Program-made: the position numbers and the translations under genes | Shown here: positions 1 to 63,697 of the stretch, piece after piece | Layout: the number at the start of each line of letters is the position of its first letter | How positions within the stretch are numbered: the stretch's first letter is position 1 | The notes under the pieces: model-generated | Databases searched by the model: none | What the model was told of the DNA's origin: nothing | The model's input: only the letters and a program-made list of their open reading frames with translations | From: Phycisphaerae bacterium | GTDB lineage: Bacteria > Planctomycetota > Phycisphaerae > SM23-33 | DNA length: 64,000 nucleotides | NCBI GenBank assembly: GCA_041687095.1 | Contig: JAWLCQ010000004.1 | Span: 19,194 to 83,193 of the forward strand | Direction of reading: 5' to 3'

Positions 1-113
1 GGCCGACATCCTCCCCACCGTCCCCGGAATCGCTGTACGCATGCCCGGTGCGACGAAAGGCCCCTCCCCCACACACGGACACCCTGCACAGGCGCACAAG
101 GAGCACAGCAGAC

Positions 114-1847: not shown

Positions 1848-1996
1848 GCGGCGGCGGTTGACCGTATGGAGGCCAGAGCGTACGATACGCTTCTCCCCAT
1901 CGCGGTGATTCCGGAACCCACCGTCGCCGCGGACTCCCCCGCCGGCGCTACCCACGGCGGATGGCGAACAGACGCTTCAACAGAGTGAGGATAGAT

Positions 1997-5904: not shown

Positions 5905-5910
5905 GTCGGC
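5839..5910 (-). tRNA. tRNA-Thr (anticodon CGU)
   Basis: The reverse complement folds as a canonical cloverleaf: acceptor GCCGACC/GGUCGGC, D-arm GCUC-AACGGUA-GAGC, anticodon stem CAGCU/AGCUG with loop UUCGUAA (anticodon CGU), variable loop AGGUU, T-arm CAGGG-UUCGAAU-CCCUG. CCA is not encoded. Confidence 0.85.
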
Positions 5911-26900: not shown

Positions 26901-29900
26901 TGCCGATCGTGACCGTCCCGGTGTAGGCGGAGGTCTGGGTCCAGTCGTCGATGTTGTAGGTGACGTCCCAGACCAGGTCGGCGGTGCTGGTTCCGTCGAG
27001 CAGCACGTCCACCCCGTGGTCCAGGGCGCCCGACCAGTTGTTCGGGTTGCTCGCCAGCCCGTCGCCCCCGCCGTTGGTCCACGTGACCGTCGCGGCGGAG
27101 AAGTCGTCGTCGAGGATCCGCCCCGTGGCGCTGTTGGGGGCGCCCAGCGTGTAGGTGGGGCTGGTTGTGAGGGTCAGCTTGAGCTGCTCGTGCCCCTCGC
27201 GGGCCCCGTCGTTCACGGGGGTGACGACGATGTCAGCGTACAGTTCCCCGTCAGGGATGGTGATCGTCCCGCCCAGAGTCTCGCTGTAGTCGCCCGCGCT
27301 CGCGTTGCCGCTCACCCCGTACATCACCACCAGGTCGCCCGACGCGATGTCGCCCGGGCCGCTGCGGCTGATGCGGAAGCTCATCGTCCCGTTGCCCGCC
27401 TCGCTGCCCGAGGCGTCGGTGGCGGTGATGGAGACGACCGGCTTGTCGTCGCTGGTGATGTTCACCACCCCGCTGTAGGGCGAGCCGATCTGGTAGGCCG
27501 CGTCGGAGGCCAACTGCACGCTCACCGACTCGCTGCCCTCGATCTCATCGTCGTCGATCGGGGTGACGGTGATGACGGCCGAGTTCTGCCCGCTGGGGAT
27601 CACCACCGATCCGGTCAGCGTAACGTAGTCGCTGCCGTTCGTCGCCGACCCCCCGATGGTGTAGTACACCGTCAGGTCCCCGCCCGTGAAGCTGCGGGTG
27701 ACGGTGAACGCCCCCGTCGCCAGGCCCGCCTCGGCGGCGGTGCTGTCCGTCGCCGACAGCGTGACGGTCGGAATCCCGTCGTTGTCCCCGATCGTCACGG
27801 TCCCGCTGATGACGGCCCCGCGGGCGTAGGCGTCGTCCTTGGCGAGCGTGAGGATCAGCGTCTCGGGGCCCTCGACCTCCTGGTCGTCCACGGGCGTGAC
27901 GGTCACGACCACGGAGGACTGCCCGTCGGGGATCACCACGCTGCCCGTCAGCGTGGGGGTGTAGTCGCCGCTGCCGGCCGTCCCGCCGACCGTGTAGTGA
28001 ACCGTCAGGTCCCCGCTGGTGCCCGTGCGCGTCACCGTGAAACTGCCGGTATCGGTCCCCTGCTCGTGGGCCGAGGTGTCGGTGGCCTCCAGGGTGACGG
28101 TGGTCCAGGTGCCCGTGAGCACCACGCTGGCGCCCTGGATCTCCAGGCGGCACCCGCTCCAGCCCGTCGTCCCGTAGTCGAGCACCACGCCCGAAAGGTC
28201 CGGGGCGGTCCCACTGAAGGTGAACAGGACGTGGTCCTCCGTCACGAAGCCCCCGTCGTCCACCAGCTTGAGCGTCCAGGTGCTGCCGCCGTAGGGCAGC
28301 GTGACCACGCCGCTGACGGAGATCGAGTCGCTCACGGTGTCGCCCAGGGAGCACTCGTAGGTCGCCCCGTTCTCCAGCGTGAGGTCCCCGGTGATGGACA
28401 TCGCCCCGGTGGCGCTTCCGGGGGCGATCGTCCCACCGCTCGCCACCGTCACGCTCCCGCTCACCGCCCCCCCGCCCGAGAGCCTCAGCCCGCTGGCGAC
28501 GGTGACGGGCCCGACGAGCGTCCCGCCCGTGTTGACCGTGACGTTCGCGTTGAGGGCGTCGGTAACGCTGGCCGTCAGCTTGCTGCCGGACTGGACCGTC
28601 ACCGGGATCCCGCCCAGGCCCCCGGTGTAGGTGACCATCATCTCGCCCGTCCGCGTCCCGTCCCCGACGATCCACTCGCTGATGGCGTTGGAGTACGCGG
28701 GGGCGGAGCTGTCGAGCACGAAGCGGCCGCGGCCCTGCCCGTCGAGGACGCGCCCGACCACCTTGTTCCCGCCCGTGAGCACGAACGTCGGGCAGTACGT
28801 GTCCAACCCGAGCAGCAGCCGCTCCTCCGACCCGTACGCGTTGCCCGCCGAGAGGAAGACCATCTCGGTGAACCCGTTGCTGCCGTCGACGTTGATCGTG
28901 CCCTGCTGCAGGCGGCGGGTCACCTCGCTGGTGCTCGTGCTGAACGCGCTGGTCTGCCGCGCGATGCCCATCCACGGCGAGCCGTTGCCGATGTTCAGCG
29001 TGAAGGCGGGATCGTTGAAGTTGTTGCCCAGGCCGAACAGCAGGTCATGGGCGGTTCCGAGGTTCTGGATGGAGCTGGTGCTGACCGTGGTGTGGCAAAC
29101 CACCGCGCCCGTGGACAGGATGGCCTCGGGCGTCGTCGGGCTCCCGCTGAAGCTGCTGACGCGGTAGACCGACCCGAGTTGCGCGCTGGACCCGCGGATC
29201 TGCCCGAACTCCGAGACCGTGAAGCGGTCGGGCGTGCTGGACCATGTGCCCACCAGGTTGATCGTCCCGTGGTCCTCGGCGGTGATCCCCGCCGTCACGC
29301 CCCCCACGGCCGTCTGGGCGCCCCACGTGTAGCTCACCAGCCCCCCGATCCCGCGGACGGTCACCGGGCCCGTGCCCAGGGCCCCGGCGACGGTGGCGTT
29401 GAGTTCGGTCACGCGGCGCTGCCCGGAGACGTGGTCGACGAGGAACCCGCCCGAGAAGTTGGGCTGGGCGGCGGAGAGATGCATCTGCGTCCCGTACGTC
29501 ATCGCCCGCAGCGTCACCAGTCCGCTGCCCTGGAGCTGGTCGGCGTCGTCGAAGACGATGTCGTCGCTGTTGGCGTAGAACGTCGCCCCGCCCTCACCGA
29601 TGGTGACCGTCCGCCCCGACGCGGGGTTGAAGTCCCCCCCGTTCGTGCCGATGCTCACCAGCACCCCGCCCCCGAGCGTGAGGTCGTTGGCGCTGTTGCC
29701 GAAGATCGTGTCCGCCCCGGCGGTGCTGTACAGGAACGTCCCGCCGCTGATGGAGATGGGACCGGTGAAGTCGCTGAGGGTGTTCCCGAAGGCGTAGGTC
29801 CCGCCCCCGAAGAAGTTCACCCCGCTCGCCGTTCCGCTCACCGGGCAGGTGATCGTGTGCGTCTTGCCCGAGCGGGCGTTGACGTTCAGCGTCCCGTTGC

Positions 29901-32900
29901 TGAGGATCAGCTTGTATGTCCCCAGGATGCTGAAGCTGTTGAGGCTGTCGATCGTCACCCACCCGACGGTCTCGTCCTGCGTGTCCAGCGTAACGCTGGC
30001 CCCGCTGGAGAAGACGGCGACGTCATTGGGCCCGGGCACCTCGCCCAGGTCCCAGTTGGTGTAGGTGGACCAACTCCCCGTCCCGCCGATCCAGTGGAAG
30101 GTGCGGGTGTCGTTGTCGGCGAGGGTGATCGTGCCCGTCTCCGGGTACGCCAGGTCGTAGTTCGCCGTATCCAGAAGGGTCAGCGTCAGGTACTCGTCGA
30201 TCTCGGGAGCGGCGTCGTCGATGGGGGTGACGTCGATGTAAACATAGCGCTCGTTGGCGGGGATGGTCACGCTGCCGGTGAGGGACTCGTAGTAGTCCCC
30301 GCTGGCGGCCGTGCCGCTGAGGGAGTAGCTCACCGTCAGCGGACTGCCCGTGGGCCCGGTGCGGTAGACCATGAACCGCCCGCCGTCCTCATTCTCCTCC
30401 GAGGCGTCGGGGTCGATGGTGATCAGGCTGACCTGCTGCGTGGCGGGCTGCTCGTAGGAGGTGAACTCCCACGCGCCCCCGACCTGGGTGAAGTTGACCT
30501 TGGCCCCCCCGGGCAGGTTCACGGTGATCGTGCCCGACCCGTAGGTGACGCTGTAGTCCGCCCCCGCCACCGGCAGGTCTCCGGTGAGGTCGTTGAGCGG
30601 GAGCATCACGGTGACCAGCGGGGTGTTGGCGTTGGCGGTGTAGTCACCGCGGACCTTGTACCACTGCACGCCCATGCGGTCGAAGTACCACGAGCCCTCG
30701 AAGTCCGTCGGCCCCGTGGCCGTCAGCGACGCCGCCGGGCCGAACGTGCGGAGCAGCATCCGCCCGTTGTTGCCCTGGATGACGGCCCCCAGGCCCCCAT
30801 CAATGGTCGAGGCCGCGAAGCCCGCCTGGTACTGGGCCGTCACCACCCCGCTGCCCGAAGCGACGATGTCGTCCAGCAGGATGAGCGCCTCGCCCTGCAG
30901 CTCCTGCTGCGTCATGACGAACACCCGGTGCGCCCGCGTGGCCGCCCCGTTGGCGTAGGCGTCCGTGGTGTCCATCACGAACCCACGGTATCCGGCGGCG
31001 GCGTTCTCGAAGCTGCTGAGGATCGTCGCCATCGGCGTGTTCGAATCCGTCACGCCATTGCCGTCGATCAACGGGATGCTGTGGACCGTCTGGTCCCCGT
31101 CGCTGGCGTTGCCCTGGAAGTAGCCCGGGTCGATGAGGTAGGCCTCCTCGTTCGCCTGGACGACGAAGCTGCCTTTGTCGTACTGCTTGTGGTGCCCGTA
31201 GCGGTGCCCCCCGATCGCCGAGACCACCATGTCCGGGTAGAAGTCCGACCCGTCGGTGCGGATCGTGACGCCCTGCGTATTGTTGTCCAGCACGACCTTC
31301 GTGGCGATGGTGGGGAAGCTCGACGGGCTCGCCGTCGCGTCCCGCCACAGGAACCCCCAGGCGACGTACGGGTCGCGGACGTCGAGGTTGTTGCGGTAGT
31401 AGCTGGAGATGAGCCCGTCGGCGTCGGCGGCGATGCGGGAGGCCATCTCGTCCGCCAGCCAGCGGTACAGCCCGTCGTTGAAGCGGGCGCCGAAGTCCGC
31501 GCAGATGGTGAAGCCCGTCAGGAACGGCTGGGTGTCCCCGAAGCTCTGCATCCCGGTGACCTTGTCGCCCGCGAGCAGGAACTCGACGTAGTCCCGCATG
31601 TTCGACAGCGACGGCGCCGTCAGCAGCCCCTGGTGCGAGCCCGTCGCCTGCTCCAGCGCCTTGGCGAAGTACAGGTAGTACCCGAACCCGTAGTCCCAGT
31701 ACAGCGAGCCCTCCGGGCACCCCCCGTCGACCATGAACCCCTTGTCGATGTAACTGTTCTCCAGCAGGTCGACCGCCCAGTTGATGGCGTAGACGCTCTC
31801 GGTGTACATGGTGTGCTTCATCACCAGGCCGGACATGCCCGCCACCCCGGCGGCGACGACGACGGTGTTGGACCCGGGGTTCCCGTACCACCCCCACGTG
31901 CCCTCGTCGTCGGTGAGCAGGTCGGAGAAGTAGCCCTCGAACCACCCCCGCTCCGTCGCCGTCAACTCGGCGGCGAGGGCGTTGTAGGCCTCGGCCATCG
32001 CGGTCACCCGGCCCACCGCCACCTGCCCCTGCTGGCTCACCCAGCCGATGGTGTTGGCGACGTAGTCGACCTCCCGCATCAGCCGGTCACGGTACTCCGG
32101 CTTGCCCGTCAGCAGATACCCATAGAGGCTCGTCACGATGACCGAGCCGTTGGAGTCGAAGCTGTTGATCAGGCCGGTGGAGAGGTGCTTCTCCGCGCGG
32201 TCGAGGATGGGCTGAACGTAGTCGGCGAAGGCGGGGTTGGCCGCCTTGGCCTTCAGCGCCGCCACCCCCGCGTCGCCGAACCACGGGCTCACGTACGTCG
32301 CGTGATACCCGAACTTCGGGGACCCGCCGAACGTGTTGCCGCCCGTGGCCGCCGCGATCGTCGCCAGCCCCACCGTCGTCCCCCCCGCCGGAACCGTGAA
32401 CGTCGCCTGCCGGGACGACACGATCGTCACGTTCGTCGCCGCCGAACCGTTGACGGAGAACGTCGTCGTCGCCTCGAACCCCGCCCCGAAGACGGTGATC
32501 GTCACCCCCCCGTTCAGATGCGCGTTATCCGGCGTGCAGCTTGACAGGTAACGCCCGTAGGCGACGCCACCGTCCAGGACCGCCGACAGCTCGTTGGGGT
32601 TCACCACCTCCAGCGAGTAGATGCCGTCCGCCGCCGCCATCGCCGGGAGCGTCACCGTGAGCTGCGTGGAACTGTTGAACGTCACGCCCGCCATCGCCGT
32701 CCCGCCGATGCGGACCTCGCAGCCGTTGACGAAGTTCGTCCCCGTCACCGTGATCTGCGAGCCGCTCCCCAGCACCGCCGGGCCGCTGTAGCCCGCAACC
32801 GTCGGCCGCAGGCCTACCGTCAGCAGGACGGTCACCTTCATCGTCTGCGACCCGTCCGTGACGGTGATCGTGCCCGTGTAGCTGCCGTTGGTGAGGCTGG

Positions 32901-35430: not shown

Positions 35431-36030
35431 GGCGTGCTCCTTTGCCCAGGTTGGTGGGCGCGGGGAGGGGTCCCTCCGCGCACACGATAACTGCAGTTGC
35501 ATTCCCTTGGCTCGCCACACCGACAAGGGACCACGCGGACAGACCGCGCGACACCCGCCTCCGCCGGGAGGGGATACGGACGAGACTGTCCCAACCCGAA
35601 CCCGGCCGACGAACCAACCAATTGTGCTCCCGCGCCCGCTTCAGGGACGAGAGCGCCAGACAGGACAAGATCGAAGCGACAGCAAACGAACGGTGTCGGG
35701 CAGGCAATGCGCCCGACGACATGCCAGCACCCTTGAGGATAACAGCACCCCGGATAGCGTCAAGCGAGCAGCAACGAGATAATGTGCGAACGTAGAATAC
35801 TCGCGGCTGAATGTGCAGGAATAGCACCCCCGCGCACCCGGCTGCGCTTCGCTCCGCCCCCTGCATGCCCTACACACTCCGCCCGAAAAAGGGGAACAGG
35901 CTCCGCGGCTGTCTGGCGGTGCCTGCCCCCCGGCGGTTCGCCTGCATGGGCTCGAAAAGCGGGACAGGCACCTGCGCGGCGAACAGCAGCCGCCCTGGCC
36001 CCAGTGCCCATTCTCAAAACCGCTGCTCCG

Positions 36031-37368
36031 CTACCGCTGGTAGATCGGGACGATCTGGTACGCCGGGGTCAGCGCCAGGATCGACAGGGCGGTGGTGTAG
36101 GCGGGGCCGCTCCAGTGGTCGCTGTCGATGACCCCGCTCCGCCGCGGCGGATGGACCCAGGCGCCCTGGTCGTTCTGGTTGGCGAGGAAGATCTCGGCGA
36201 GCTGCGAGTAGAACCGCCGCCAGTGCTCCCCCCCGAGTTGGAACGTGCCCTGCGAGGCGTGGTACATCGCGTAGAAGTACCGCTCCGCCCCCGGGACCGT
36301 GCTGCCGTAGGAGGCGGGGTTGTTCGCCAGGATCCAGTCCCCCGCCGCCTTCGCCACCGGCAGCCCGTGCCTCCCCCCCATCGCCAGCGCCAGCATCCCC
36401 GCCCCCGCCATCGCCCGGTTCGGCCGCTCGGGGGTCTGCGGGGCGTAGATGAACGTCCCGTACGACGGGACGAAGCACCGCCCCACGAACCCCGCCGAAT
36501 CGTCCACGCTCTTGACGGGCACGTCGAACCCGGCGTTCTCGGCCGAGCGGAGGAAGCACATCATCCAGCAGGTGACGGACAGGTCCGAGTCGCACTCCCC
36601 GAAGCTGCCCGGAACGATGTACCGCCACGCCCCGCGGTCCAGAACGCGGCGCTTGGGCTGCTGGTACTGCAGGTCGATGGAGTACTTCAGCGCCCGCTCG
36701 ACGGCCGGTCGGATCCGCAGCGCCCGCTCGCGGTCCGTCATCCCGTAGACCTCGGCGAGGAAGATCCCGGCGATTCCGTGGCTGTACGTCGAGTGGGTGT
36801 AGCGGAAGCGGGAGAGCAGCCCGTCGGACTGCTGGGAGTCCAGGACGTAGTCGATGGCGCGGTTGAGGTGCTCCCCGTAGGGCCCCTGCCCCGGGACGTG
36901 CCCCGCCGCCAGCAGCGCCATCCCGCACAGCGCGGTCACGCCCGGCTGGGACTTGGAGTTGCCCGACTGGAACTGCCCATCCCGAAGCTGCTGCGTGACG
37001 AGGAACGCCAGCGCCCGCTCGACGGACTGGTCCACCCGCCGCCACGTGAGGGCGTCGACGGCGTCCTGGGGGGCGGACTGCGGGGGCTCCTGCGCGAGGG
37101 CGGACGAGGCGACAGACAGCAGGAAGAGGAGGGCAACCGCCACCACCCCAGGTGCGCGAGGCGCGAGCGGGGAGGCAGTGGGGCAATTTCCAATTTCCAA
37201 TTTCCAATTTCCAATTGGTTTGAAGACTGTTCCACAAACCGATTTCCACCGCAGAGAACGCGAAGATCGCAAAGGAGACTGGGCGTAGACAAAGGGAGTC
37301 CCACTCCCCCTCTGCGGCCGTTGCGACCTTTGCGGTGGGTTCTGAAGCAGTCTCTTGGCGGGCTTCAC
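36031..37368 (-). CDS. secreted prenyltransferase/squalene-oxidase-repeat (terpenoid cyclase-like alpha/alpha toroid) protein; start codon uncertain
   Basis: Repeated QxxDGxF/W-type motifs (QLRDGQFQSG, SQQSDGLLS, NQNDQGAWV). Hydrophobic signal-like segment VVAVALLFLLSVASSALAQ. The track start at 37368 is a GTG. A (CAATTTC)n repeat lies between that start and the signal peptide. Confidence 0.6.
   Translation of the reverse strand: MKPAKRLLQNPPQRSQRPQRGSGTPFVYAQSPLRSSRSLRWKSVCGTVFKPIGNWKLEIGNCPTASPLAPRAPGVVAVALLFLLSVASSALAQEPPQSAPQDAVDALTWRRVDQSVERALAFLVTQQLRDGQFQSGNSKSQPGVTALCGMALLAAGHVPGQGPYGEHLNRAIDYVLDSQQSDGLLSRFRYTHSTYSHGIAGIFLAEVYGMTDRERALRIRPAVERALKYSIDLQYQQPKRRVLDRGAWRYIVPGSFGECDSDLSVTCWMMCFLRSAENAGFDVPVKSVDDSAGFVGRCFVPSYGTFIYAPQTPERPNRAMAGAGMLALAMGGRHGLPVAKAAGDWILANNPASYGSTVPGAERYFYAMYHASQGTFQLGGEHWRRFYSQLAEIFLANQNDQGAWVHPPRRSGVIDSDHWSGPAYTTALSILALTPAYQIVPIYQR
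37184..37216. repeat. heptanucleotide microsatellite (CAATTTC)x4 plus a partial unit
   Basis: Perfect tandem heptamers, AT-rich in a roughly 70% GC background, in the 5' region of the prenyltransferase-like gene. Confidence 0.9.
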
Positions 37369-37371
37369 GGA

Positions 37372-40300
37372 TCACTCTCCTCTCGCGTCGGGGTCGGTCT
37401 CGACGGTGTCGGCGAGGCGGCGGTAGTAGTCATCGATGGCGCGGCGGTACTGTTCGGGGGGATCGGCGGAACGGCCCTGTTTGAGCCCGTCGCGGAGGCG
37501 GGAGACAAAGAGGTTCCACTTCTTTCGCCGCGCCTCGACGAGGGTCTTCTCCCAGGTCTGCAGCTCGACGCGTTTCCAGGCGTCGAGCTTGTTGCGGATG
37601 GACTGGGCAAGGTTCTGGGCGTTCTGCCCGGTCTGCTGAGCGAGGGCGGAGGCGGCGGCCATGGCGGACCCGGCCCCGCTGCCCGCGCCCGATCCCCCGC
37701 CCATCCCCCCGCCCTCTCCCGGGTTGTTCGGCATCCAGTCCTGCATGACCTGGATGTTCAGCCGCACGCCCGCCAGGCCCAGCAGTTCGGCCGCGTCGCG
37801 CTCGTGCTGGAGCATCCGCAGGATGGCCTCCAGGTCCGGGGCGATGGGCGGCTGCGCCCCGCGCATCCGTTCCTCCAGGAGCGTCAGCAGGTCGTCGAAG
37901 ATCTGCTCCGCCAGGGCGAAGGCGTCGACGGTGGATTGCTGGATGCGGTGGGCGTCGTCGAGCTTGCCCTCGTGCAGGGCAGAGGCGGTCTCGGAGTGCA
38001 GCTTGGCGATGTCCTCCTTGACGAGGCGTTGGAGGTCGTCGGCCTTGGTGGGGATGGGGGGGTCGGCGTCGGCGAGGTTATAGGCGACGTCGAGGAGCTT
38101 CCAGGCGAGGACGGCGGTGTCCTCCTCGAGGAGGATCAATTGGGCGGTGGCGATGGCGGCGAAGTCCTCGGTCTCGAGGGCCTGGAGGCGGGCGACGAGG
38201 GCTTCCTGCTCGCGGAGCATGCGGAGGGTCTCGCGGACGCGGCGGTCGGCGTAGATGGCGACCTCTCCGTCGTTGGGATCGGAGAAGGCGACGGTGTCGG
38301 CGGCGGTCCCCAGGAGGCGCATCTCCTCCAGGAGCTTCTCCGACAGCTCCAGGGCCTTGTTGGGGTCCGCGGGGAGCGTGGCGGCGAGTTCGCCGGCGTG
38401 CTGGGCGACGCTCTTGGCGAGGGCGGCCATGGCGTCGGTGGGCTCGATGGCGAGCGTCGACTGCCGGGGTCGCCAGACCACCGCGTTGTCGTACAACTGG
38501 CTCGCCGCCTGGGCGAGCTGCGCCTGCTCGGTGGCGATGTCCCGGGCGTGCTTGTCGAGGAGGGGCTTGCGTTTCTCGGGCGTGTCGGCCGACTGCCAGG
38601 CGGCGGTGTCGGCGAGCAGGGCCTGCTGGCGGCGGGCGAGGAGCGTGAGCTGGTCGCGGAGGGTGTCGGCGGACTGGCGCTGCATCGCCATGAACCGCCG
38701 CATGAGTTCCGGGTCCTCCGCGAGCAGCCGGGCGAGTTCCTCCATGAGTCTCCGCAGGTCCTCGTAGTACTTCTGGACGGCCTTGGCGAACTCGTCGTCG
38801 ACCTCGACCATCTTCCCGGTCCGCGGGTTGATGCGGTTCCGCTGCGCCTGGAGGAAGGCGTTCATGTCCTCGACGAGGATGCGGTGCATCTTCGCGATGT
38901 GTTCGAGATCGTCGGCGCGCTTCTCCTCGTTGGCGATCCGCTCATAGGCCTTGGTGAGTTCGACGAGTTTGGAGCGGGCGCGGCGGATGTGGAACAGCGC
39001 CTGCGTGAGGGGCTCGGCCATCTCGGCGGGGCTCTTGGTGAGCTTGCCCGCCGCGTCGAGGTTCTCGGCGGCGGGGACGACGTCGGAGATCCCGATGTCC
39101 TCCAGTTGCAGGGAGATCATGGCGTAGGGCGTGTTGGCCGCCTTGTGCTTGAGTTCCTCGATGAGCTTGGCGGCGGATTGGAGGCGCTTTCGGCCGCCCT
39201 TGAGCAGCGTGCCCTGCTCGGCGGTCCACTTGGGGAGGGACGGGACCGCGGTGTGCAGGGCGGTGGTCGCCTCCTCGGCGGCGGCGAGTTCGGTATCGAG
39301 GGCCTTGAGGTAGCGGGCGATGTCCAGGCGGAGCTTCTCGCGCTTCTGGGCGTCGTTGTGCTGGGCCCACTCGTCGATCTGGATGCGGTGCTTGGGCGAC
39401 TCCGCGCGCGGGGGCTTCCCCCCGGGCAGCGATCGCATCTGCATGTCGTTGGGCGGGGGCGAGTTCTCCGGGGCCTGGGGGTCCTGGGGATCCCGCTCGC
39501 CCCCCGAGGTCTGCGAATCCCGCGAGTTCGGATCGGTGCTGCTGGAGTTCGGGTCCTGCTCCCCGCCCGGGGGGCAACTGCTCCCGCCCGAGTTGGGATC
39601 GGAGGGACTGCTCGATTGCGATCCGCTGCTGCCCGAGTTGGGGTCGGACGGGCTGCTCGACTGCCCCCCGCTGCTGGAGTTCGGGTCCTGCGGGTTGCCC
39701 GACTGGCTGTTACCCGAGTTCGGGTCGGAAGGACTGCCGGACTGCCCGCTACGGGAGTTGGGGTCCGACGGGCTGCCCGATTGACCACTGCGCGAGTTCG
39801 GGTCAGAGGGACTGCCCGATTGGCCGCTACGGGAGTTGGGGTCCTGCGGGTTCCCGGGCTGCCCCCCCTGGGAGTTCGCGTCCTGCGGATCGCCCGACGC
39901 GTTCGATTGGCCGGAAGGGGACAGCTGCGGGTTCCCGTTCTGCCCCGACTGGGAGCCCTGATTCCCGACTGCGTTGGGGTCCTGCGGACCGCCCTGGTTG
40001 GGGTTCTGCTGCGTCAGGTCGGTGGGGTCCTGCGGGTCACCCTGCGTGCCCCCGCGCGTGTCGCCCTGGGTGGACTGGACGGCGTCGCGGGCGCGGAGGA
40101 CGTACTCCACGCGGTCCCCATGCTTCACCTGCAGCGCCTGCAGGTCCAGGTTGACCGCCCCCGCCATCTGCAGGGGCGGGGGCAGATTGGGGTCGGGGTC
40201 GAGGGACTTGAGGAAGGTCCGGGGCTGCTCTCCCTCGCGGGAGATGGTGACGGCGAGTTCGAGCCCGAGGATCCCGAAGTCGTCCTGCGCCTCGTAATGG

Positions 40301-41556
40301 ACGGCGATGGTATCGTCGGGGGGGGCGAGGATGTCGGAGTCGGGGCTGCGGATCCAGACGCGGGGTTCGCGGTCGGGGTAGACGGTGATGCGGCAGACGG
40401 GGGGGGCGAGGTTCTTGAGCCCCCCCTGCCCCACCGCCTCGACGCGGAACTGCAGCGTCTCGCGGAGTTCAGACGTATGGCTGAACCACCCGTCGCCCGC
40501 GGGGGTCAGATCGATGGTCCCGGCGGACCCGGTGTCGATCTGGATCCGCTCCACCGCCGTCGCCGCCCGGCAGCGCAGTTCCATCGTGCTGCCCTCCAGG
40601 GCGCGGAGCGTGCGGGGGAGCGTGTCGTACTCCTGCGCGGGGATCTGGCTGTAGTCGGGGGCGGTGACGCGGAGGCGGACCTCGCCCAGCTCGGGGCGGG
40701 GCACGACCGTCACCCGGTGCCAGGGCGTCTGCCCGTCGCCCGCGCGGAAGCGGTACTCGAAGGACTCGCTGACGGCGCGGAAGGCGTAGGAGAAGTCCGC
40801 CCCCCCGCTCCCCTGGCGGGGCAGGTCGATGGCGTGCTCCTCCCCGTCGGCGGTGCGGAGCATGAGGATCGCCGTCTCGCGGGGGGCCCCGGAGAGGGCG
40901 GCCTCCAGGCGGAGCGGTTCGTGGCGGGCGACGGCGGGCGAGCCCGTCAGCGAGCGGATCTGCGTGAGGGTGATGTCCGCGGAGGGATGCAGGAAGCGTT
41001 GCAGCAGCACCCGCGCGCGGTGCGAGCCGGCCACGCTGACCGCCAGGATCAGCGCAGGGACCGCGAGGCACAGGGCGGCGCGGCGGAGCGGGCGGGTGCT
41101 CACCACGCGGTTGGGATGCACGAGGCCGCGGAGGCGGTCCGCCTCCTGCGAGACGCGCTGCAGCAGCGCGGGGTCCCCGCGGAACGCGGGGGCGTCGCGG
41201 CTGGCGGCGAGTTCGGTGACGGTGGACCAGCGCTCCTCGAGTTGGGGAACGGCGAGGTCGATCTCGAGCGCCACCTGCGCCATCCGCCACCGCAGCAGCC
41301 CCACGCGGACGAGCCCGGCGAGGGCGGCGAGGGCGGAGGCGGCGAGGGCGGCGTACGTGAGCCCCGCCCGCCAGGCGGGACTGAAGAGCGTCAGCAGCCC
41401 GTCGAGGCACATGGCCAGGAGCATGGCCGCCAGCAGCGCCCCCGCCCCCCACAGGACCGCGCGGACGAGCGCCACCCCCAGCTCCCGCCGCCGCACTGCG
41501 CGGACGGTGGACTGGAGGCTGGAGGGCACGGAAATCGGTTGGGCACTCTGCGTCAT
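37372..41556 (-). CDS. large membrane-anchored protein (~1394 aa) with N-terminal TM helices, a central Ser/Gly/Pro/Asp/Asn/Gln low-complexity repeat region and a long C-terminal alpha-helical/coiled-coil region; member of the MoxR-BatA operon
   Basis: ORF 37372..41679. Start at MTQSAQPISV (ATG 41556). Hydrophobic helices LGVALVRAVLWGAGALLAAMLLAMCL and LCLAVPALILAVSVAG. Immediately downstream of the VWA gene on the same strand. Confidence 0.7.
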   Translation of the reverse strand: MTQSAQPISVPSSLQSTVRAVRRRELGVALVRAVLWGAGALLAAMLLAMCLDGLLTLFSPAWRAGLTYAALAASALAALAGLVRVGLLRWRMAQVALEIDLAVPQLEERWSTVTELAASRDAPAFRGDPALLQRVSQEADRLRGLVHPNRVVSTRPLRRAALCLAVPALILAVSVAGSHRARVLLQRFLHPSADITLTQIRSLTGSPAVARHEPLRLEAALSGAPRETAILMLRTADGEEHAIDLPRQGSGGADFSYAFRAVSESFEYRFRAGDGQTPWHRVTVVPRPELGEVRLRVTAPDYSQIPAQEYDTLPRTLRALEGSTMELRCRAATAVERIQIDTGSAGTIDLTPAGDGWFSHTSELRETLQFRVEAVGQGGLKNLAPPVCRITVYPDREPRVWIRSPDSDILAPPDDTIAVHYEAQDDFGILGLELAVTISREGEQPRTFLKSLDPDPNLPPPLQMAGAVNLDLQALQVKHGDRVEYVLRARDAVQSTQGDTRGGTQGDPQDPTDLTQQNPNQGGPQDPNAVGNQGSQSGQNGNPQLSPSGQSNASGDPQDANSQGGQPGNPQDPNSRSGQSGSPSDPNSRSGQSGSPSDPNSRSGQSGSPSDPNSGNSQSGNPQDPNSSSGGQSSSPSDPNSGSSGSQSSSPSDPNSGGSSCPPGGEQDPNSSSTDPNSRDSQTSGGERDPQDPQAPENSPPPNDMQMRSLPGGKPPRAESPKHRIQIDEWAQHNDAQKREKLRLDIARYLKALDTELAAAEEATTALHTAVPSLPKWTAEQGTLLKGGRKRLQSAAKLIEELKHKAANTPYAMISLQLEDIGISDVVPAAENLDAAGKLTKSPAEMAEPLTQALFHIRRARSKLVELTKAYERIANEEKRADDLEHIAKMHRILVEDMNAFLQAQRNRINPRTGKMVEVDDEFAKAVQKYYEDLRRLMEELARLLAEDPELMRRFMAMQRQSADTLRDQLTLLARRQQALLADTAAWQSADTPEKRKPLLDKHARDIATEQAQLAQAASQLYDNAVVWRPRQSTLAIEPTDAMAALAKSVAQHAGELAATLPADPNKALELSEKLLEEMRLLGTAADTVAFSDPNDGEVAIYADRRVRETLRMLREQEALVARLQALETEDFAAIATAQLILLEEDTAVLAWKLLDVAYNLADADPPIPTKADDLQRLVKEDIAKLHSETASALHEGKLDDAHRIQQSTVDAFALAEQIFDDLLTLLEERMRGAQPPIAPDLEAILRMLQHERDAAELLGLAGVRLNIQVMQDWMPNNPGEGGGMGGGSGAGSGAGSAMAAASALAQQTGQNAQNLAQSIRNKLDAWKRVELQTWEKTLVEARRKKWNLFVSRLRDGLKQGRSADPPEQYRRAIDDYYRRLADTVETDPDARGE
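39500..39900 (-). repeat. coding low-complexity repeat region (13-aa SDPNSRSGQSGSP unit x3 plus degenerate copies; roughly 39-bp periodicity)
   Basis: The protein reads ...PQDPNSRSGQSGSPSDPNSRSGQSGSPSDPNSRSGQSGSPSDPNSGNSQSGNPQDPNSSSGGQSSSPSDPNS.... Codon usage differs between copies, so the DNA repeats are imperfect. Confidence 0.6.
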
Positions 41557-41589
41557 GGTTCCACCCCTTCTCTCACGCCATCCCCGCTG

Positions 41590-41720
41590 ATCGTGGCATG
41601 GGCGTCTCGCCCATGTGTCCCACGGGCATCCTGCCCGTGGGGCGGGGACCCGAGCAGGGGCGGGACGCCCCTGCGACACACGGGCAAGATGCCCGTGCCA
41701 CGGAAAGCCATGTGTTCCTT
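41590..41720. repeat. REP-like array of GC-rich hairpins between the VWA gene and the 1394-aa gene
   Basis: Palindromes CATGGGCG-tctc-GCCCATG; CCCACGGGCA-tcc-TGCCCGTGGG; CACGGGCA-aga-TGCCCGTG. Shares cacgggcaagatgccc with the 17470 locus. Confidence 0.4.
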
Positions 41721-41727
41721 CATGTCT

Positions 41728-47743: not shown

Positions 47744-47766
47744 TGGCCCGTGCCTCTCGCGGATAC

Positions 47767-47822
47767 TGGTTCATTGGTTGACTGGTTGACTGGTTGATTG
47801 GTTGATTGGTTGATCGGTTGAC
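47767..47822. repeat. octanucleotide tandem repeat (TGGTTGAY)x7 in the moxR-DUF58 intergenic region
   Basis: tggttcat tggttgac tggttgac tggttgat tggttgat tggttgat cggttgac, followed by an inverted partial copy (cagtcaaccagttcacc) about 60 bp away. It lies 25-80 bp upstream of the DUF58 ATG. Confidence 0.9.
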
Positions 47823-47902
47823 TGGGCAAGGAACCGATTGCTCCATTGCCTCACCGTGTACTCGCCGGTGAGTCCATCACCCAGTCAACCAGTTCACCAT
47901 TC

Positions 47903-48934
47903 TCAAGCCTTCGCCATCGCCGGCAGGAGGGACTTGGCGCTGCGGAGGATTTCGACGATGAGGTCGTCCGCCGTCCGCCCCGCCGCCTCCGCGCTGAAGC
48001 TGGGGATCACGCGGTGGCGGAGCACGGGACCGGCCATGGCGACGACGTCCTCGGTCGTCGCGTGGCAGCGCCCGTGCAGGACCGCGCGGGCCTTGGCGGC
48101 GAGCAGGAGGTAGATGCTCGCGCGGGGCCCGGCGCCCCAGGCGATGAGGTTCTCCAGCCCGCTGGGCATGGCCCCCTCGTTCGGCCGCGTCATCCTCGCC
48201 AGGCCCACCGCGAAGCGGTAGACGTGCTCGCCCACGAGGACCCTGGGGATGATCTTCTGGATGCGCTCGATGTCCGCCCCGCTGAGGACCTCGGTAACGG
48301 TGGCGGCGTACTCGGTGGTCTGGCGCTTGGCGATCTCGATCTCTTCGAGTTCGCTGGGGTAGCCTACCTGGATCTTGAGCATGAACCGGTCGAGCTGCGC
48401 CTCGGGCAGCGGGTACGTGCCCTCCTGCTCGATGGGGTTCTGCGTCGCCAGGACGAAGAACGGGTGGGGCAGCGGGTAGGTGTTGCCCCCCACCGTGAGC
48501 TGCCGCTCCTGCATTGCCTCCAGCAGGGCGCTCTGCGTCTTGGGGGGCGTGCGGTTGACCTCGTCGGCGAGCAGGAGGTTGGCGAAGAGCGGGCCCGGGA
48601 CGAAGCGGAAGGCCCGCCGGCCCGTGGTGTGGTCCTCCTCCAGCACGTCGGTCCCGGTGATGTCGGCGGGCATGAGGTCGGGAGTGAACTGGATGCGCCC
48701 GAACTTCAGCCCCAGCGCCCGCCCCAGCGACGAGACGAGCATCGTCTTGGCGAGGCCCGGGACGCCCTCGAGAATGCAGTGCCCGTGGCACAGCAGGGCG
48801 ATGGTGAGCTGCTCGATCACGTCGTCGAGCCCCACGATCACGCCCCGCAACTGCCCCACGATCCGCTCGTACGCCGCGTGGATCTCCTCGACCGCCTGCA
48901 CCTGCGCCCCGCTGTCCTGACTGCCCGTAGTCAC
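47903..48934 (-). CDS. MoxR-family AAA+ ATPase
   Basis: Walker A GVPGLAKT, Walker B LLADEVNR, and strong overall MoxR/RavA similarity (…LATQNPIEQEGTYPLPEAQLDRF…). GTG start at 48934 with AAAGGAG upstream; the track ORF extends to 49075. Confidence 0.85.
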   Translation of the reverse strand: MTTGSQDSGAQVQAVEEIHAAYERIVGQLRGVIVGLDDVIEQLTIALLCHGHCILEGVPGLAKTMLVSSLGRALGLKFGRIQFTPDLMPADITGTDVLEEDHTTGRRAFRFVPGPLFANLLLADEVNRTPPKTQSALLEAMQERQLTVGGNTYPLPHPFFVLATQNPIEQEGTYPLPEAQLDRFMLKIQVGYPSELEEIEIAKRQTTEYAATVTEVLSGADIERIQKIIPRVLVGEHVYRFAVGLARMTRPNEGAMPSGLENLIAWGAGPRASIYLLLAAKARAVLHGRCHATTEDVVAMAGPVLRHRVIPSFSAEAAGRTADDLIVEILRSAKSLLPAMAKA

Positions 48935-55001: not shown

Positions 55002-55036
55002 ACGAAGAGTTTCGTTCTTACCACGAAAATCTTCGT
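55002..55036. promoter_or_regulatory. two copies of an ACGAA-N4-TTCGT dyad (candidate BlaI-type operator) in the divergent blaI / U32 promoter region
   Basis: acgaaGAGTttcgt at 55002-55015 and acgaaAATCttcgt at 55023-55036, centres 21 bp apart, in an AT-richer stretch about 95-130 bp upstream of blaI. Confidence 0.35.
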
Positions 55037-55225
55037 TTTCATCCTGCGATTCGGTCCCACTCAGGACACCACCCTACGCTGGGTGCCACGGCTGCGCCGT
55101 CCGCAGCCGTGTCGTCCTGCCAGCATGGCTGCGGATGGCGCAGCCGTGGCACCCGGGCCGTGGCACACCCGGGCCACTGGGACTTCTGAAGACGCAATAG
55201 AATAGGGCGTGCCCAGGGAGACGCG

Positions 55226-60432: not shown

Positions 60433-60484
60433 GCCTTCCTTCCGTCATCCCAAGCGTACCGGGAACCCGTTTCACCGCGGAGAG

Positions 60485-60640
60485 CGCAGGGAGAGGAAAG
60501 GCACTAGGGACTAGGGACTAGGGACTAGGGACTAGGGACTAGGGAAGAAGAAGCACCGAAGCATGACGTTGCCTCTTCCGCTTCTTCTGCCTATTCCCTA
60601 GTGCCTATTCCCTAGTGCCTCTCCTCTGCGATCTCTGCGG
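60485..60640. repeat. ~155-bp imperfect palindrome whose left arm carries (ACTAGGG)x8 (60504-60559) and whose right arm carries (GCCTATTCCCTAGT)x2
   Basis: Left arm gagaggaaaggc(actaggg)8aagaagaag; right arm cttcttctgcctattccctagtgcctattccctagtgcctctcctc (reverse complement gaggagaggcactagggaataggcactagggaataggcagaagaag). It lies between the sulfatase stop and the SSS transporter start. Confidence 0.85.
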
Positions 60641-60652
60641 TGAACGCCTCCG

Positions 60653-62110
60653 TCACGCCAACCCGTTGGGGTGCGCTTCCAGGAACTCCGCGTGCTGCTT
60701 GCGCCCGGTCTCGCGGAGGCGCTTGGCGTACTTCTCCAGGCTGCTGCGGGTGTGGAACGGACCGCCCTCGCGGAGAACCTCCCACAGCGGGTCCCCGTAG
60801 GGCCGGCCCGCGAGCATCTCGGTCGTCCACTCCTCCAGCAGCCGCGAGCCGTGATCCACCAGGTCCTGGCGGGACGGGGCGAGGTCGTTCAGCTCGTGGG
60901 GGTCGGCGGCGAGGTCGAAGACCATCTTCTCGCGGAGGTTCTTGAGGCCCGTGTCCCACGTGCGGCAGAAGAGGTTGTCGCCCCAGCGGACGGACCGCAT
61001 GCACGACCACGCCATCTGCGAGAACACCACGTACTCCCGCCCGCCGTCGGTTCCCTTGCGGAAGGCGTCGGCGTAGCTGCGCCCGTCCCAGCACGCGGGC
61101 ACCTCCCCGCCGAGCAGCTCCACGAGCGTCGCGGCGATGTCGCACTGGTTGTACAGGCCCTTGTCCACGCGCCCCCCGGGCATGCCGGGGTAGCGGACGA
61201 TCATCGGGACGCGCGAGGTGATGTGGTCGGCCGTCGCGTGGTCGCCGATCACGCCCAGCTCGCCCATGTTCTCCCCGTGGTCGCTGGTCATGATGACGAT
61301 GGTGTCGTCGAGGACGCCCTTGTCGGCGAGGGCGTTGAGGACGCGCCCGCACCACTCGTCGGCGTAGCGGATGCCGGTGTCGTACCCGTTGACCCAGGTG
61401 CGGTAGTCGTCCATGGACGCGATCTGGCTGGGCTGGCGGGGGTGTCCGGGCGGGGTGGGCGCCCCGTAGCTCCCGCCCGGTTCCTGCGGGGTCCCGGGCC
61501 CGAAGCTGTTCCACTGCTGCTGGCGGAGTTCCTCGGTGTACCACCCGGCGAGGGGCTCGTCGGCGAAGGGGTCCCCGAACTCCTGCGGCGTGCGGTAGAC
61601 CGTGTGCGGGTCCCAGATGTTGATGTGCAGCATCCAGTCGGGGCGCTCGGCGTTGCGGTCGATCCAGTCCAGGGCCAGCGGCACGATCTGGTCCGCCCGC
61701 TCGCTCCCGCAGTAGCCCGTGTTGACCATCTCGTGCCACCCCGCGTAGAACCACCACGCCGAGTGCCGCTCCGCGAACGGGCTGAACGACACCGGGTAGA
61801 TGCCCCGCCCGCGGAGCAGCTCGATGAACTCCGGCCGCTGCCAGCGCGTCTGGAAACCGCGCTCGCGCCCCATGGGCCGCAGGTCCGCCTGCAAGCCCCC
61901 ATGGTTCACCACGCCCGTGTGGATGCCGAACTGCCCCGTGAACATGCTCGCCCGCGAGGGCAGGCAGGGGGCGTCGGAGACGTAGCAGTTCTCGAACCGT
62001 ACGCCCTCGGCGGCGATGCGGTCGAGGTTGGGGGTCGTGTTGCGGTGGTAGCCATAGCAGCCCAGATGATCCGCCCGGGTGGTGTCAACGTCGAGGTACA
62101 GGATACGCAC
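60653..62110 (-). CDS. sulfatase (arylsulfatase-family, formylglycine-dependent), no signal peptide
   Basis: N-terminal MRILYLDVDTTRADHLGCYGY and the FGly signature C-L-P-S-R in SDAPCLPSRASMFTGQ; metal-ligand Asp residues present. Confidence 0.8.
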   Translation of the reverse strand: MRILYLDVDTTRADHLGCYGYHRNTTPNLDRIAAEGVRFENCYVSDAPCLPSRASMFTGQFGIHTGVVNHGGLQADLRPMGRERGFQTRWQRPEFIELLRGRGIYPVSFSPFAERHSAWWFYAGWHEMVNTGYCGSERADQIVPLALDWIDRNAERPDWMLHINIWDPHTVYRTPQEFGDPFADEPLAGWYTEELRQQQWNSFGPGTPQEPGGSYGAPTPPGHPRQPSQIASMDDYRTWVNGYDTGIRYADEWCGRVLNALADKGVLDDTIVIMTSDHGENMGELGVIGDHATADHITSRVPMIVRYPGMPGGRVDKGLYNQCDIAATLVELLGGEVPACWDGRSYADAFRKGTDGGREYVVFSQMAWSCMRSVRWGDNLFCRTWDTGLKNLREKMVFDLAADPHELNDLAPSRQDLVDHGSRLLEEWTTEMLAGRPYGDPLWEVLREGGPFHTRSSLEKYAKRLRETGRKQHAEFLEAHPNGLA

Positions 62111-62177
62111 GGATAGTCTCCTTCTATACGGTTTCGGAAGCGGGCATTATAGGGCCCGACGCCGCACGGGGGAAGGC

Positions 62178-62491
62178 GGGGGGAATTTCGGATTTGGGAA
62201 TTCGGATTTCGGATTTGCGTGGGTGTTGATCGGGGTCCCCTCCGCGGAAGCGGGTCTTTCACTCGCTCCAGGATTGAGCGGGGATGAACGCAGATGAACG
62301 CGGATAGAGGGAAGGCGGGGATACAGGGGATGAGAGTGACAATCAACTCCCATCCCTTGCATCCCCGCTCTCTCTTCCTCATCTGGTTCATCTGCGTTCA
62401 TCCCCGCCAAGTCTTCATCCGCGGAGGGAAGCCTGGACTGCCACCCACGCAAATCCGAATTCCGAAATCCCAAATCCGAAATCCCGAATCC
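62178..62491. mobile_element. ~315-bp non-coding long imperfect palindrome (MITE/BIME-like) with ~45-bp terminal inverted repeats built from degenerate ATTTCGG/ATTTGGG/AATTCGG heptamers
   Basis: Left end gggaatttcggatttgggaattcggatttcggatttgcgtgggtg. Right end cacccacgcaaatccgaattccgaaatcccaaatccgaaatcccgaatccc (its reverse complement matches the left end). Inner perfect inverted repeat gcggggatgaacgcagatgaac / gttcatctgcgttcatccccgc. No plausible ORF inside. Confidence 0.4.
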
Positions 62492-63697
62492 CTACATCCG
62501 GTCCAGCGTTCCCAGCGTCGGGTGCTGGTGGGGGAAAAGCACCTCGGTGAGGGCCCAGCCGTCGCCCGTGGGGCGCATGGAATTGGCCTCGAGGACCTCG
62601 TGCGGGTCGTCGGTGCCCAGGACCAGTTGGGCCACCCCGTGCCCCGCCGCCAGCGTGTGCTTCGTGCGCACCGGGTCGGTCACGCACACCGTCCCCCCGT
62701 CGATCCGCAGGCCCACCCTCTCACGCTCGTCGCTCACCAGCAGCGTCCCCGACCAGTCGTCCAGGTGCGACGCCTTCACGCGGCGGGACAGCTCGGGGGC
62801 GACGTGCTCCAGCGTCTGGCGGAGGTTGACCACGTGCATCATCGCCCCCCCGCTGCGGACGTAGTTGACCTTCGCCGTGCAGTTCCCGCGGCGGAGGCGG
62901 CGGCACAGGTCGCTCGCGTAGTGCAGGTCGCTGAAGGTCACCTCGCCCCAGCCGTTGTGCCTCGCCAGGCGATGCACCACGCGGAGCACCTGCTCCACGT
63001 CGCCCGCGTGATCGACGATCTCGCTGCCCTTGTTCACCACCCAGCCCGCCACCTTGCCCCCCGCGTCCGTCCACAGCAGGCCCTCCAGGCTGTGGTTGGG
63101 GAAGGGCACGCCGCGGAACGTCGGCCGGACGGCCGTGCCCGTGCGGACGCGGTTCTCGCGGTTGTACAGGGCCGCCAGGTCCTCGCGGTGCTTGACGGCG
63201 AACTTGCGGGTCCCCCGCTCGGGGGCCTCCGAGGGCAGGTGCGGGGTGGCGACGGTGTAGGTGGTCGCGTTCCACGCGCGGACGTACCCGAAGCGGTGGT
63301 AGAAGTCGTGGATGCCGTACAGCAGCGTCGCGTCGTAGCCCAGCGGGGCCATCGCCTCCATGCCCGCCTTCGCCGTCTCGGCCATCAGCCCGCGCTGGCG
63401 GTAGTCCCCGTGCGTCGCCACCGCCCCAATGCCCACCACGCGGATGGCCGCCGCCCCCACGCGCATGGCGAGGTCCCACGCGCCCCAGTGCGTCACGATC
63501 CGCCCGTCGAGGATCCCGATCCGCGACGCCTTCCAGTCGTAGTTCGCCCCCCCGAGGATGTACCCGCCCCGGCAGCGGTCGCGGAATGGATAGTACCCGT
63601 TGTGGGAGAAGACCTTGCACACCAGGTCGATCATCTCCTCGGCGTGCGCGTCGGGGTCCGGTGCGATCAGTTGCATCTGCTGCTCATGCTTCGCCAT
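62492..63697 (-). CDS. GNAT-family N-acetyltransferase, Eis-like (GNAT plus C-terminal SCP2-like region)
   Basis: Start at MAKHEQQMQ (ATG 63697) within track ORF 62492..63790. Acetyl-CoA-binding block HGDYRQRGLMAETAKAGMEA (R-x-x-G-x-A). Length and overall architecture resemble Eis. Confidence 0.65.
   Translation of the reverse strand: MAKHEQQMQLIAPDPDAHAEEMIDLVCKVFSHNGYYPFRDRCRGGYILGGANYDWKASRIGILDGRIVTHWGAWDLAMRVGAAAIRVVGIGAVATHGDYRQRGLMAETAKAGMEAMAPLGYDATLLYGIHDFYHRFGYVRAWNATTYTVATPHLPSEAPERGTRKFAVKHREDLAALYNRENRVRTGTAVRPTFRGVPFPNHSLEGLLWTDAGGKVAGWVVNKGSEIVDHAGDVEQVLRVVHRLARHNGWGEVTFSDLHYASDLCRRLRRGNCTAKVNYVRSGGAMMHVVNLRQTLEHVAPELSRRVKASHLDDWSGTLLVSDERERVGLRIDGGTVCVTDPVRTKHTLAAGHGVAQLVLGTDDPHEVLEANSMRPTGDGWALTEVLFPHQHPTLGTLDRM

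Follow-up and report, generated by a model that had tools for sequence, protein, structure and literature searches.

What kind of sequence is a 310-bp hairpin that separates a stop codon from a conserved promoter, how did it arise there, and what might it do? These questions are raised by a locus in a 64,000-nucleotide stretch of DNA from a Phycisphaerae bacterium (contig JAWLCQ010000004.1 of assembly GCA_041687095.1), referred to below as the window, in which a GNAT acetyltransferase gene is followed on the minus strand by a sulfatase gene. Most of the gap between the two is taken up by an imperfect DNA palindrome of about 310 bp, here called element A, which can be read directly from the sequence at positions 62182–62491. 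In our best explanation, which we judge about as probable as all its competitors taken together, element A is a compound extragenic palindrome similar to the STRR sequences (short, repetitive and repeated in tandem), produced by slippage and template switching and acting as an intercistronic hairpin, and is not a MITE (miniature transposable element with inverted repeats) derived from a transposon. By analogy of layout, the closest known counterpart of element A would be the heptamer (STRR) arrays that fold into hairpins in filamentous cyanobacteria.

The two genes on either side are both encoded by the minus strand, and element A therefore lies 3' of the GNAT gene and 5' of the sulfatase gene. 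On this sense strand, its first base is the base directly after the GNAT stop codon TAG (62492–62494), and its far end is found 30 nt upstream of the TATAAT box of the sulfatase. The outer arms (62182–62225 and 62442–62485) are 44 nt long and 93% complementary, and they are made of GGATTTC, GGATTTG and GGAATTC heptamers, much as the original prediction had described them for arms of about 45 bp. Tandem Repeats Finder (TRF) assigns a period of 7 to both arms, with 5.3 copies in the stop-proximal arm (62442–62491, minus strand, 5' on the sense strand) and 4.6 copies in the promoter-proximal arm (62182–62225, minus strand, 3' on the sense strand); the arrays are degenerate, with 78–84% matches. 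The stop-proximal arm reads GGATTCG GGATTTC GGATTTG GGATTTC GGAATTC GGATTTG CGTGGGTG, and the promoter-proximal arm reads CACCCACGC AAATCCG AAATCCG AATTCCC AAATCCG AAATTCC. The heptamer arms terminate in ATTTGCGTGGGTG and run into the unique sequence GCGTGGGTG. The GC content of the promoter-proximal arm is about 40%, compared to 69% in the window.

Further inward, the arm-to-arm alignments, the fold and the list of inverted repeats delimit a left shoulder (62226–62277), in which about 12 poorly paired nucleotides are accompanied by a perfect 11-mer, CCCTCCGCGGA (62238–62248), and by roughly 19 nt inserted on one side only (about 62249–62269), which fold into a side hairpin of their own. The partner of this region, defined by the inverted repeat and the alignments, is the right shoulder (62408–62441), which carries TCCGCGGAGGG opposite the 11-mer at 62418–62428. 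The inverted-repeat search then gives an inner pair that is perfect over 22 nt, GCGGGGATGAACGCAGATGAAC at 62278–62299 and GTTCATCTGCGTTCATCCCCGC at 62386–62407, with a TRF period of 10; each copy is itself a tandem decamer, GATGAACGCA repeated 2.3 times. The central module (62308–62375) appears both in the inverted-repeat search and in the folds, with 30-nt arms, GGGGATACAGGGGATGAGAGT (62308–62337) and ACTCCCATCCCTTGCATCCCC (62346–62375), that are 80% complementary and flank an 8-nt centre (62338–62345). These central arms are tandem 9-mers of the GGGGATNNA type. Element A is layered, from the outside to the centre, as GGATTTN heptamers, GCAGATGAAC decamers and GGGGATNNA nonamers, each mirrored on the opposite arm, and all of its modules are tandem 7–10-mers (TRF periods 7, 10 and 9). 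The perfect 22-bp inner repeat and the further inverted pair of the original prediction are both present in this anatomy. The palindrome had also been taken to occupy the whole gap between the two genes, which is not the case: the 71 nt at 62111–62181 are not palindromic and contain the conserved −10 box, the 5' untranslated region (UTR) and the Shine–Dalgarno (SD) sequence of the sulfatase.

That element A can fold on itself along most of its length was confirmed by structure prediction. The 310 nt form about 128 base pairs when folded, with a minimum free energy for RNA of −212 kcal/mol on the minus strand (z = −15.7) and −217 kcal/mol on the plus strand (z = −19.3). With DNA parameters the energy is −118 kcal/mol (z = −17.8), and none of 100 shuffled sequences is as stable. 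In a scan of all 64 kb with 160-nt windows, no other stretch stands out structurally as strongly as element A (residual z = −4.7). The two strands fold equally well, with 7 and 8 G-U pairs, respectively. In Rfam, element A matches only generic miRNA-hairpin models, far below threshold (55 bits vs 137); matches of this type are expected of any long hairpin, and element A thus belongs to no known RNA family. A tRNA gene at 5839–5910 (minus strand) is the sole Rfam match at gathering score within the 64 kb. The earlier statement that no credible open reading frame (ORF) lies inside the palindrome also holds. The GC content at third codon positions (GC3) of the ORFs overlapping element A is 0.54–0.65, compared to 0.97 in both flanking genes, and a Pfam search of these ORFs gave no match; a small protein encoded inside element A was rejected on these grounds.

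The history of the locus can be read by comparison with relatives. The upstream gene encodes a GNAT acetyltransferase (Acetyltransf_9; 62492–63697, minus strand; 401 aa from a likely ATG start), whose stop codon TAG abuts element A and whose orthologues at two related loci, L001 and L002, are 57–58% identical. The downstream gene (60653–62110, minus strand) encodes a sulfatase of 485 aa, for which one database protein, P0001, is 100% identical and the nearest relatives, at the JGI locus L001 and at the Phycisphaerae metagenome-assembled genome (MAG) locus L002, are 76–77% identical. The nearest relatives of the flanking proteins come from MAGs of Phycisphaerae and Planctomycetota. Both L001 and L002 retain the GNAT–sulfatase pair, and element A is missing from the orthologous site of both, a presence/absence difference of the sort that the original prediction had proposed to look for. 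Their gaps, of 81 and 100 bp, contain only the stop codon, a TTGACA or TTGACG hexamer, a 16-nt spacer, TATAAT and the SD sequence. More generally, the upstream gaps in relatives measure 81–261 nt with z values of at least −2.7, compared to 381 nt and z = −15.5 here. Since the gaps are short and unstructured in the relatives that keep the gene pair, element A is, as judged from these alignments, most simply a derived gain of this lineage, set between the GNAT stop codon and a promoter that was already there. The GNAT synteny is lost in all of the distant sulfatase homologues (P0005–P0008, P0014 and P0018), which have other upstream neighbours, and a metagenome scan with the GNAT alignment yielded one truncated locus.

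The sulfatase promoter and 5' UTR (62111–62181, minus strand) lie outside the palindrome, with the −10 box TATAAT at 62146–62151, the SD sequence GGAGA at 62117–62121 and a GTG start codon at 62108–62110. The TATAAT promoter of the sulfatase is kept in five lineages; among the distant homologues, L104 and L110 keep TATAAT(C/G). The −35 position reads TTCCCC or TCCCCC here, in contrast to TTGACA, TTGACG, TTGGCA and TTGCAG in the relatives. It should be mentioned that a derivation of the heptamers from CGGGAATTGAC in the −35 region of the relatives is suggestive but post hoc, and it was not used as evidence.

The degenerate −35 box brings up the first rival explanation, in which element A would act primarily on the sulfatase promoter, as cis-regulatory DNA. 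Its AT-rich, phased arm could serve as an UP-like or curved element, the repeats could be a slippage-prone contingency locus, or cruciform extrusion could tune the promoter by supercoiling. Counted from the −10 box, the promoter-proximal arm extends from −37 to about −70, and it is AT-rich in a GC-rich genome, the −35 box is degenerate here and consensus-like in four relatives, and (AAATCCG)n arrays are found directly upstream of start codons in many viral contigs. There is also a precedent in Haemophilus influenzae, where heptanucleotide repeats upstream of hmw1A tune expression (PMC8262952, PMC12721329). Like element A, the hmw1A/hmw2A repeats are 7-bp tandem units upstream of a gene, and RNA structure and RNase III take part in their output (PMC12721329, PMC8262952). 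However, the hmw1A/hmw2A arrays are one-armed, perfect and variable in copy number, whereas those of element A are degenerate and locked in a palindrome, and arrays with their level of degeneracy are poor substrates for slippage. A one-armed array would suffice for any of these functions, which leaves about 240 bp of extra palindrome over, and no full promoter was recognised at element A even by a simple consensus scan. We consider it quite improbable that regulation of this kind accounts for element A.

An orthologous site that resembles an empty site would also be left if a non-autonomous mobile element, MITE-like or of the type formed by paired repetitive extragenic palindromic (REP) sequences (REPIN), had inserted right after the GNAT stop codon, its heptamer arms being terminal inverted repeats for a transposase encoded elsewhere. 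A non-autonomous MITE was one of the two likenesses named in the original prediction, and several properties agree with that view. The 44-nt arms at 93% complementarity would be suitable termini, the size and the non-coding nature of element A are within the MITE range, separate REP-like hairpin pairs occur in the same genome, and a related MAG locus (L104, described below) has arms identical at 35 of 37 nt around a different interior at another position, as is seen in some MITE families. Known MITEs such as Correia and Nezha share with element A the absence of coding content, a length of 50–500 bp, terminal inverted repeats and a variable presence between relatives.

The traces that transposition would leave were not found in the window or in the collections searched. 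No direct repeat is present at any plausible boundary of element A (flanks ...ATGTAG| and |CCCCGCC...), so that there is no target-site duplication, and element A is single-copy within the 64-kb window. Among 185,579 species genomes (596 Gb), the 18-nt arm core was matched 13 times, always singly, in unrelated phyla and never with paired arms; about 17 matches are expected by chance by our own estimate for an 18-mer in 596 Gb, and the matches were therefore treated as noise. Neither the 22-nt arm in 241 million metagenome records nor the 17-nt arm core in IMG/VR gave any match. Low-stringency BLAST against phage and plasmid collections returned nothing but a heptamer array in a Planktothrix plasmid, and when some 1 Mb of DNA from relatives and from module-bearing loci was compared by sensitive local BLAST, only the arrays matched, while the interior of about 200 bp is unique. 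A literature search with the literal sequence returned only unrelated PCR primers. No matching autonomous element came to light, although none was searched for and the other proteins of the window were not scanned for transposases. The arms are degenerate simple sequence, and such sequence also occurs one-armed in many contigs of 33–68% GC and in cyanobacteria; arrays spread across so many contigs point to a process or a motif, not to one transposon. In addition, element A is palindromic throughout, with nested tandem repeats and patchy identity, and its interior is fully part of the palindrome, in which it differs from MITEs. On this evidence the insertion of a mobile element is an unlikely origin for element A.

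A different origin is suggested by the way in which the two arms resemble each other. Their identity, 70% overall, is patchy, with perfect runs of 22, 17, 15 and 11 nt between near-random stretches, and the three longest runs have P = 1e-4 under column shuffling. Blocks of perfect complementarity amid unrelated stretches are also what is seen in quasipalindromes made by template switching, and they are the prediction of repeated copying from arm to arm. Template switching is documented both to make and mend perfect stems (PMC8794818) and, close to promoters, to enlarge inverted repeats (PMC13100816). We propose that replication slippage would make and resize the tandem units locally and that intrastrand or sister-strand template switching would copy one arm onto the other in blocks; the two processes together would leave perfect reverse-complement patches amid unrelated sequence. 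Documented template-switch stems are mostly a few to some tens of nucleotides long, in contrast to the stem of about 128 bp in element A, and our literature search found no described growth to this length combined with the expansion of tandem repeats.

The same processes could have made element A without giving it any role. In this second type of explanation the palindrome would be a functionless mutational by-product, in which slippage-prone repeats in a relaxed gap were mirrored by template switching and then tolerated, with no part in expression. Folding and G-U counts that are symmetric between the strands fit this possibility, as do the patchy identity typical of repeated template switches, the unrelated hairpins, or none, at the same positions in other lineages, and the fact that relatives function without element A. 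Palindromes of such length are generally unstable in bacteria, being subject to SbcCD cleavage and replication slippage, and the persistence of this one suggests that it is tolerated through its imperfection or that it confers some benefit. Degeneracy of the −35 box is confined to the locus that carries the element, a hint that the two interact functionally, and the siting of similar arrays in the window, described below, is non-random. We give a purely neutral by-product a low probability.

If element A is instead an STRR-like palindrome that acts as an intercistronic hairpin, its action may be pictured as follows. A transcript reading through the GNAT gene would fold into a hairpin of about 128 bp, which could pause or stop RNA polymerase, block 3'-to-5' exonucleases and offer long double-stranded RNA to RNase III. 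The hairpin would in this way uncouple the GNAT transcript from the sulfatase, which retains its own −10 box and SD sequence, and the AT-rich promoter-proximal arm may partly compensate for the degenerate −35 box. The position is consistent with a wider pattern: in bacteria, the frequency of inverted repeats has its peak directly downstream of stop codons (PMC13155455), and element A fits this peak.

The comparison with known repeat systems supports placing element A next to the STRR sequences. In filamentous cyanobacteria, STRR sequences are 7-bp repeats that form hairpins between co-transcribed genes, for example between hupS and hupL, and their function is unknown, with transcript stability or translational coupling having been proposed (PMC2670836). 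Element A shares with them the period-7 tandem units, the co-directional intergenic site and the pairing of arrays with their complement into a long hairpin, and, as far as the 64 kb of the window go, several unit families (ATTTCGG, ACTAGGG, CAATTTC and the octamer ACTGGTTG) likewise occur together. A particularly close parallel is found in Planktothrix agardhii plasmid p1 (L111, NZ_LR882964.1, 12553–14995), where two co-directional gaps have the layout of element A: a stop codon, (GATTTAC / GGATTTT)n, an AT-rich centre, (CCCCAAT / CCAAATC)n(CGTAAAT)n and a start codon. The general order of stop, (GGATTTN)n, centre, (NAAATCC)n and start is that of element A, with closely similar units. On either side of the two Planktothrix palindromes, which enclose a small four-helix-bundle gene, are a DISARM drmD gene and a restriction–modification gene of the MmeI type, so that hairpins of the STRR type separate genes of a defence island in this plasmid.

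Element A also departs from the STRR sequences in several respects. Its host is a member of the Phycisphaerae (Planctomycetota) with 69% GC and not a cyanobacterium, it nests decamer and nonamer modules within the heptamer arms, and it reaches 310 bp. The classical STRR units, those of Mazel et al. in 1990, are reportedly CCCCAGT, TTGGTCA and CAACAGT, and the units of element A differ from these. The searchable literature yielded no such elements outside cyanobacteria. What would be new here is an STRR-like hairpin in the Planctomycetota, and a compound one, where such elements were previously thought to be cyanobacterial.

The other system to be considered is that of the REP sequences and their assemblies, the bacterial interspersed mosaic elements (BIMEs) and REPINs. 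A REP is an imperfect palindromic unit of 20–40 nt with a GTAG or CGTC tag, present in many copies, for which mRNA 3'-end protection and termination have been proposed (PMC3733652). Element A resembles these elements in being extragenic, just after a stop codon, hairpin-forming and a mosaic of palindromic units, and the description of the palindrome as BIME-like in the original prediction is a fair analogy to this extent. The analogy ends at the unit itself, because REPs number in the hundreds in a genome, are nearly identical to one another and have a link to REP-associated tyrosine transposases (RAYT), whereas no repeated REP unit is present in element A and no second copy of it was found. 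A REP-type GTAG tag at the edge of element A was considered and rejected; the four letters are the junction of an ATG codon and the TAG stop codon, and the relatives carry TGA there.

Separate GC-rich inverted pairs that are REP-like were found in the window at 55018–55189 and 41600–41727, at L001 (7579–7736), in the gap after the sulfatase gene in L107 and in the gap upstream of the sulfatase gene in L109. The pairs consist of small palindromes of the form CCACGGC...GCCGTGG or CACGGGCA...TGCCCGTG (z = −5 to −8). They have the look of a true REP-type family, multi-copy and common to these Phycisphaerae, that stands apart from the repeat-armed palindromes.

Is element A alone of its kind? AT-enriched arrays with a period of 7–8 occur in only four gaps of the window, with four different units. 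All four gaps are co-directional on the minus strand, and all four elements begin 0–10 nt after the upstream stop codon, a siting that argues against a neutral by-product. The second full palindrome, element B (about 175 bp, 60470–60645, minus strand), is located between the sulfatase stop and the start of a symporter gene (z about −11 to −12), with an outer stem (TTCACCGCAGAGATCGCAGAGG...) that pairs TTCACCGCAGAGATCGCAGAGGAGAGG with CCTCTCCCTGCGCTCTCCGCGGTGAA. Of the two arms of element B, one carries a nearly perfect (CCCTAGT)x6.7 array and the other repeats with a 14-mer period (GCACTAGGGAATAG x2.4), from which it seems that, once the palindrome existed, one arm was homogenised or expanded. 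At 47762–47904 (minus strand), an octamer array, (ACTGGTTG)x7.6, is partly paired with a partial inverted partner and abuts the SD sequence and start codon of the downstream gene. At 37184–37352 (minus strand), TRF and folding reveal a perfect unpaired (CAATTTC)x4.7 array beside a palindrome of about 135 bp (CCACCGCAGAGAACGCG..., containing CCACCGCAGAGAACGCGAAGATCGCAAAGGAGA). The perfect arrays at 47762–47904 and 37184–37352 are long enough to be prone to slippage. The last of these arrays had been connected to element A through a shared ATTTC core, which is trivially true; the meaningful link is instead that both are intergenic tandem arrays of period 7.

Repeat-armed elements were also found in relatives. 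In the related MAG (L104, GCA_964616985.1), arms of ATTTCGG / AATCCGN units begin with ATTTCGGATTTCGGAATTCGGATTTCGG directly after the gspH stop codon, and about 190 nt after this first arm AATCCGCAATCCGCAATCCGAAATCCGC abuts the next pseudopilin gene. The L104 arm shares 35 of 37 nt with the arm of element A, around an interior that differs. In L109, the stop codon of the orthologous sulfatase gene is followed by a (GAATGAC)n-armed palindrome, and in L106 a one-armed array follows a stop codon.

Among viral contigs, a perfect (CGGATTT)x3 occurs in 25, with 33–68% GC, compared to about 0.03 expected by chance according to our own estimate from the size of the collection; GATGAACGCAGATGAAC is present in 24 contigs and TTCACCGCAGAGAWCGC in 34. 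Heptamer arrays paired into hairpins were found in L082, L088 and L089, and L019 and L033 combine module types that are found in element A. The decamer module forms hairpins after stop codons in L025 and L027 and contributes to another palindrome in L016. The statement that all module hits are palindromes was rejected, since palindromes account for only about 3 of 20, 4 of 32 and 3 of 22 of the distinct loci. A polarity in which the GGATTT arm follows a stop codon and the AAATCC arm precedes a start codon is seen in element A, L104 and both Planktothrix gaps; it was dropped as a rule on account of the reversed order in L082. From the sequences compared, the repeat-armed elements are a class and not a sequence family, being of the same kind with different sequences, some of them one-armed or partly paired.

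Gene callers seem to mis-annotate such elements, taking the L104 palindrome for the N-terminus of a pseudopilin and the L082 array for a C-terminus. At L104 (1067–1735), the first 80–85 or so codons of a called 222-aa gene are the heptamer-armed palindrome, so that the call is probably an annotation artefact, and the real pseudopilin start is probably near the 3' array. A similar probable artefact at L082 (2126–3592) has an (AAATCCG)n array within the C-terminal end of a 488-aa ORF. A strikingly conserved motif of about 35 nt was also noted in the viral loci L041–L073, consisting of an A-rich run, TTCACCGCAGAGA(A/T)CGC(A/G)GAG(A/G)(A/G)CGC(A/G)GAG and a second A-rich run. The TTCACCGCAGAGA motif recurs in many unrelated IMG/VR contigs (e.g. 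L043, L045, L047, L049, L053, L055, L057, L062, L064 and L073), where it sometimes makes up the two ends of a long hairpin and is often one-armed, in front of a gene. It has no Rfam match and was absent from our literature search, and it may serve a phage or host group as a signal for regulation or termination.

Several observations weigh against reading element A as an STRR-like intercistronic hairpin. The strand-symmetric fold shows no sign that the sense RNA has been under selection; an origin purely at the DNA level or a neutral origin fits it equally well. An intrinsic terminator at element A was rejected: the sense strand 3' of the hairpin reads CCCCGCCTTCC, with no U-tract, and a consensus scan was empty on both strands. 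Every step of the function proposed above is one that we infer. About 10–15% of the module-bearing loci elsewhere are palindromic, and the widespread feature is the array, mostly one-armed. The near-identity of the L104 arm could reflect shared descent of a mobile unit, and the copy count from the organism's own genome covers the 64-kb window alone. Finally, the polarity of the gain, as read from the alignments, rests on one relative clade (L001 and L002) together with non-syntenic outgroups.

Other features of the window have no direct relation to these palindromes. At 3–3718 (plus strand) there are two adjacent paralogous genes of about 600 aa, apparently duplicated in tandem with a period near 1871 bp, and the same short repeats and palindromes recur at this offset (TRF rows 749/2620 and 921/2792; inverted repeats 1748/3619). 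A giant ORF of 4862 aa (20938–35526, minus strand; GC3 0.96) contains a 342-bp tandem repeat x4.3 at 24247–25701 and probably encodes a repetitive surface or adhesin-type protein. An ORF of 1435 aa (37372–41679) has 39/78/117-bp repeats at 39586–39883.

Taken by itself, this locus is of modest practical importance, and its coding content is unaltered. The part worth attention is the recurrence across phyla of repeat-armed palindromes in stop-to-start gaps. We tentatively suggest, as a possibility that we hold with less than even confidence, that element A and its likes are the first recognised non-cyanobacterial members of a cross-phylum class of repeat-armed palindromes, each generated in place from units of 7–10 nt, which fill stop-to-start gaps in Phycisphaerae, their phages and cyanobacteria and serve as modular, possibly repeat-number-tunable, RNA-boundary or processing elements. 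If the STRR-like reading of element A holds, the locus would be a clean natural experiment on the birth of a 300-bp hairpin with a stop codon on one side and a conserved promoter on the other, with the relatives showing the 'before' state, and the degenerate −35 box would suggest that the promoter has changed since the gain. STRR-like heptamer hairpins would then be no peculiarity of cyanobacteria but a solution, or a mutational product, that recurs across distant phyla and their phages. With a cross-phylum class of this kind, the function of STRR sequences, a 35-year-old question, would gain a second independent lineage in which it can be tested.

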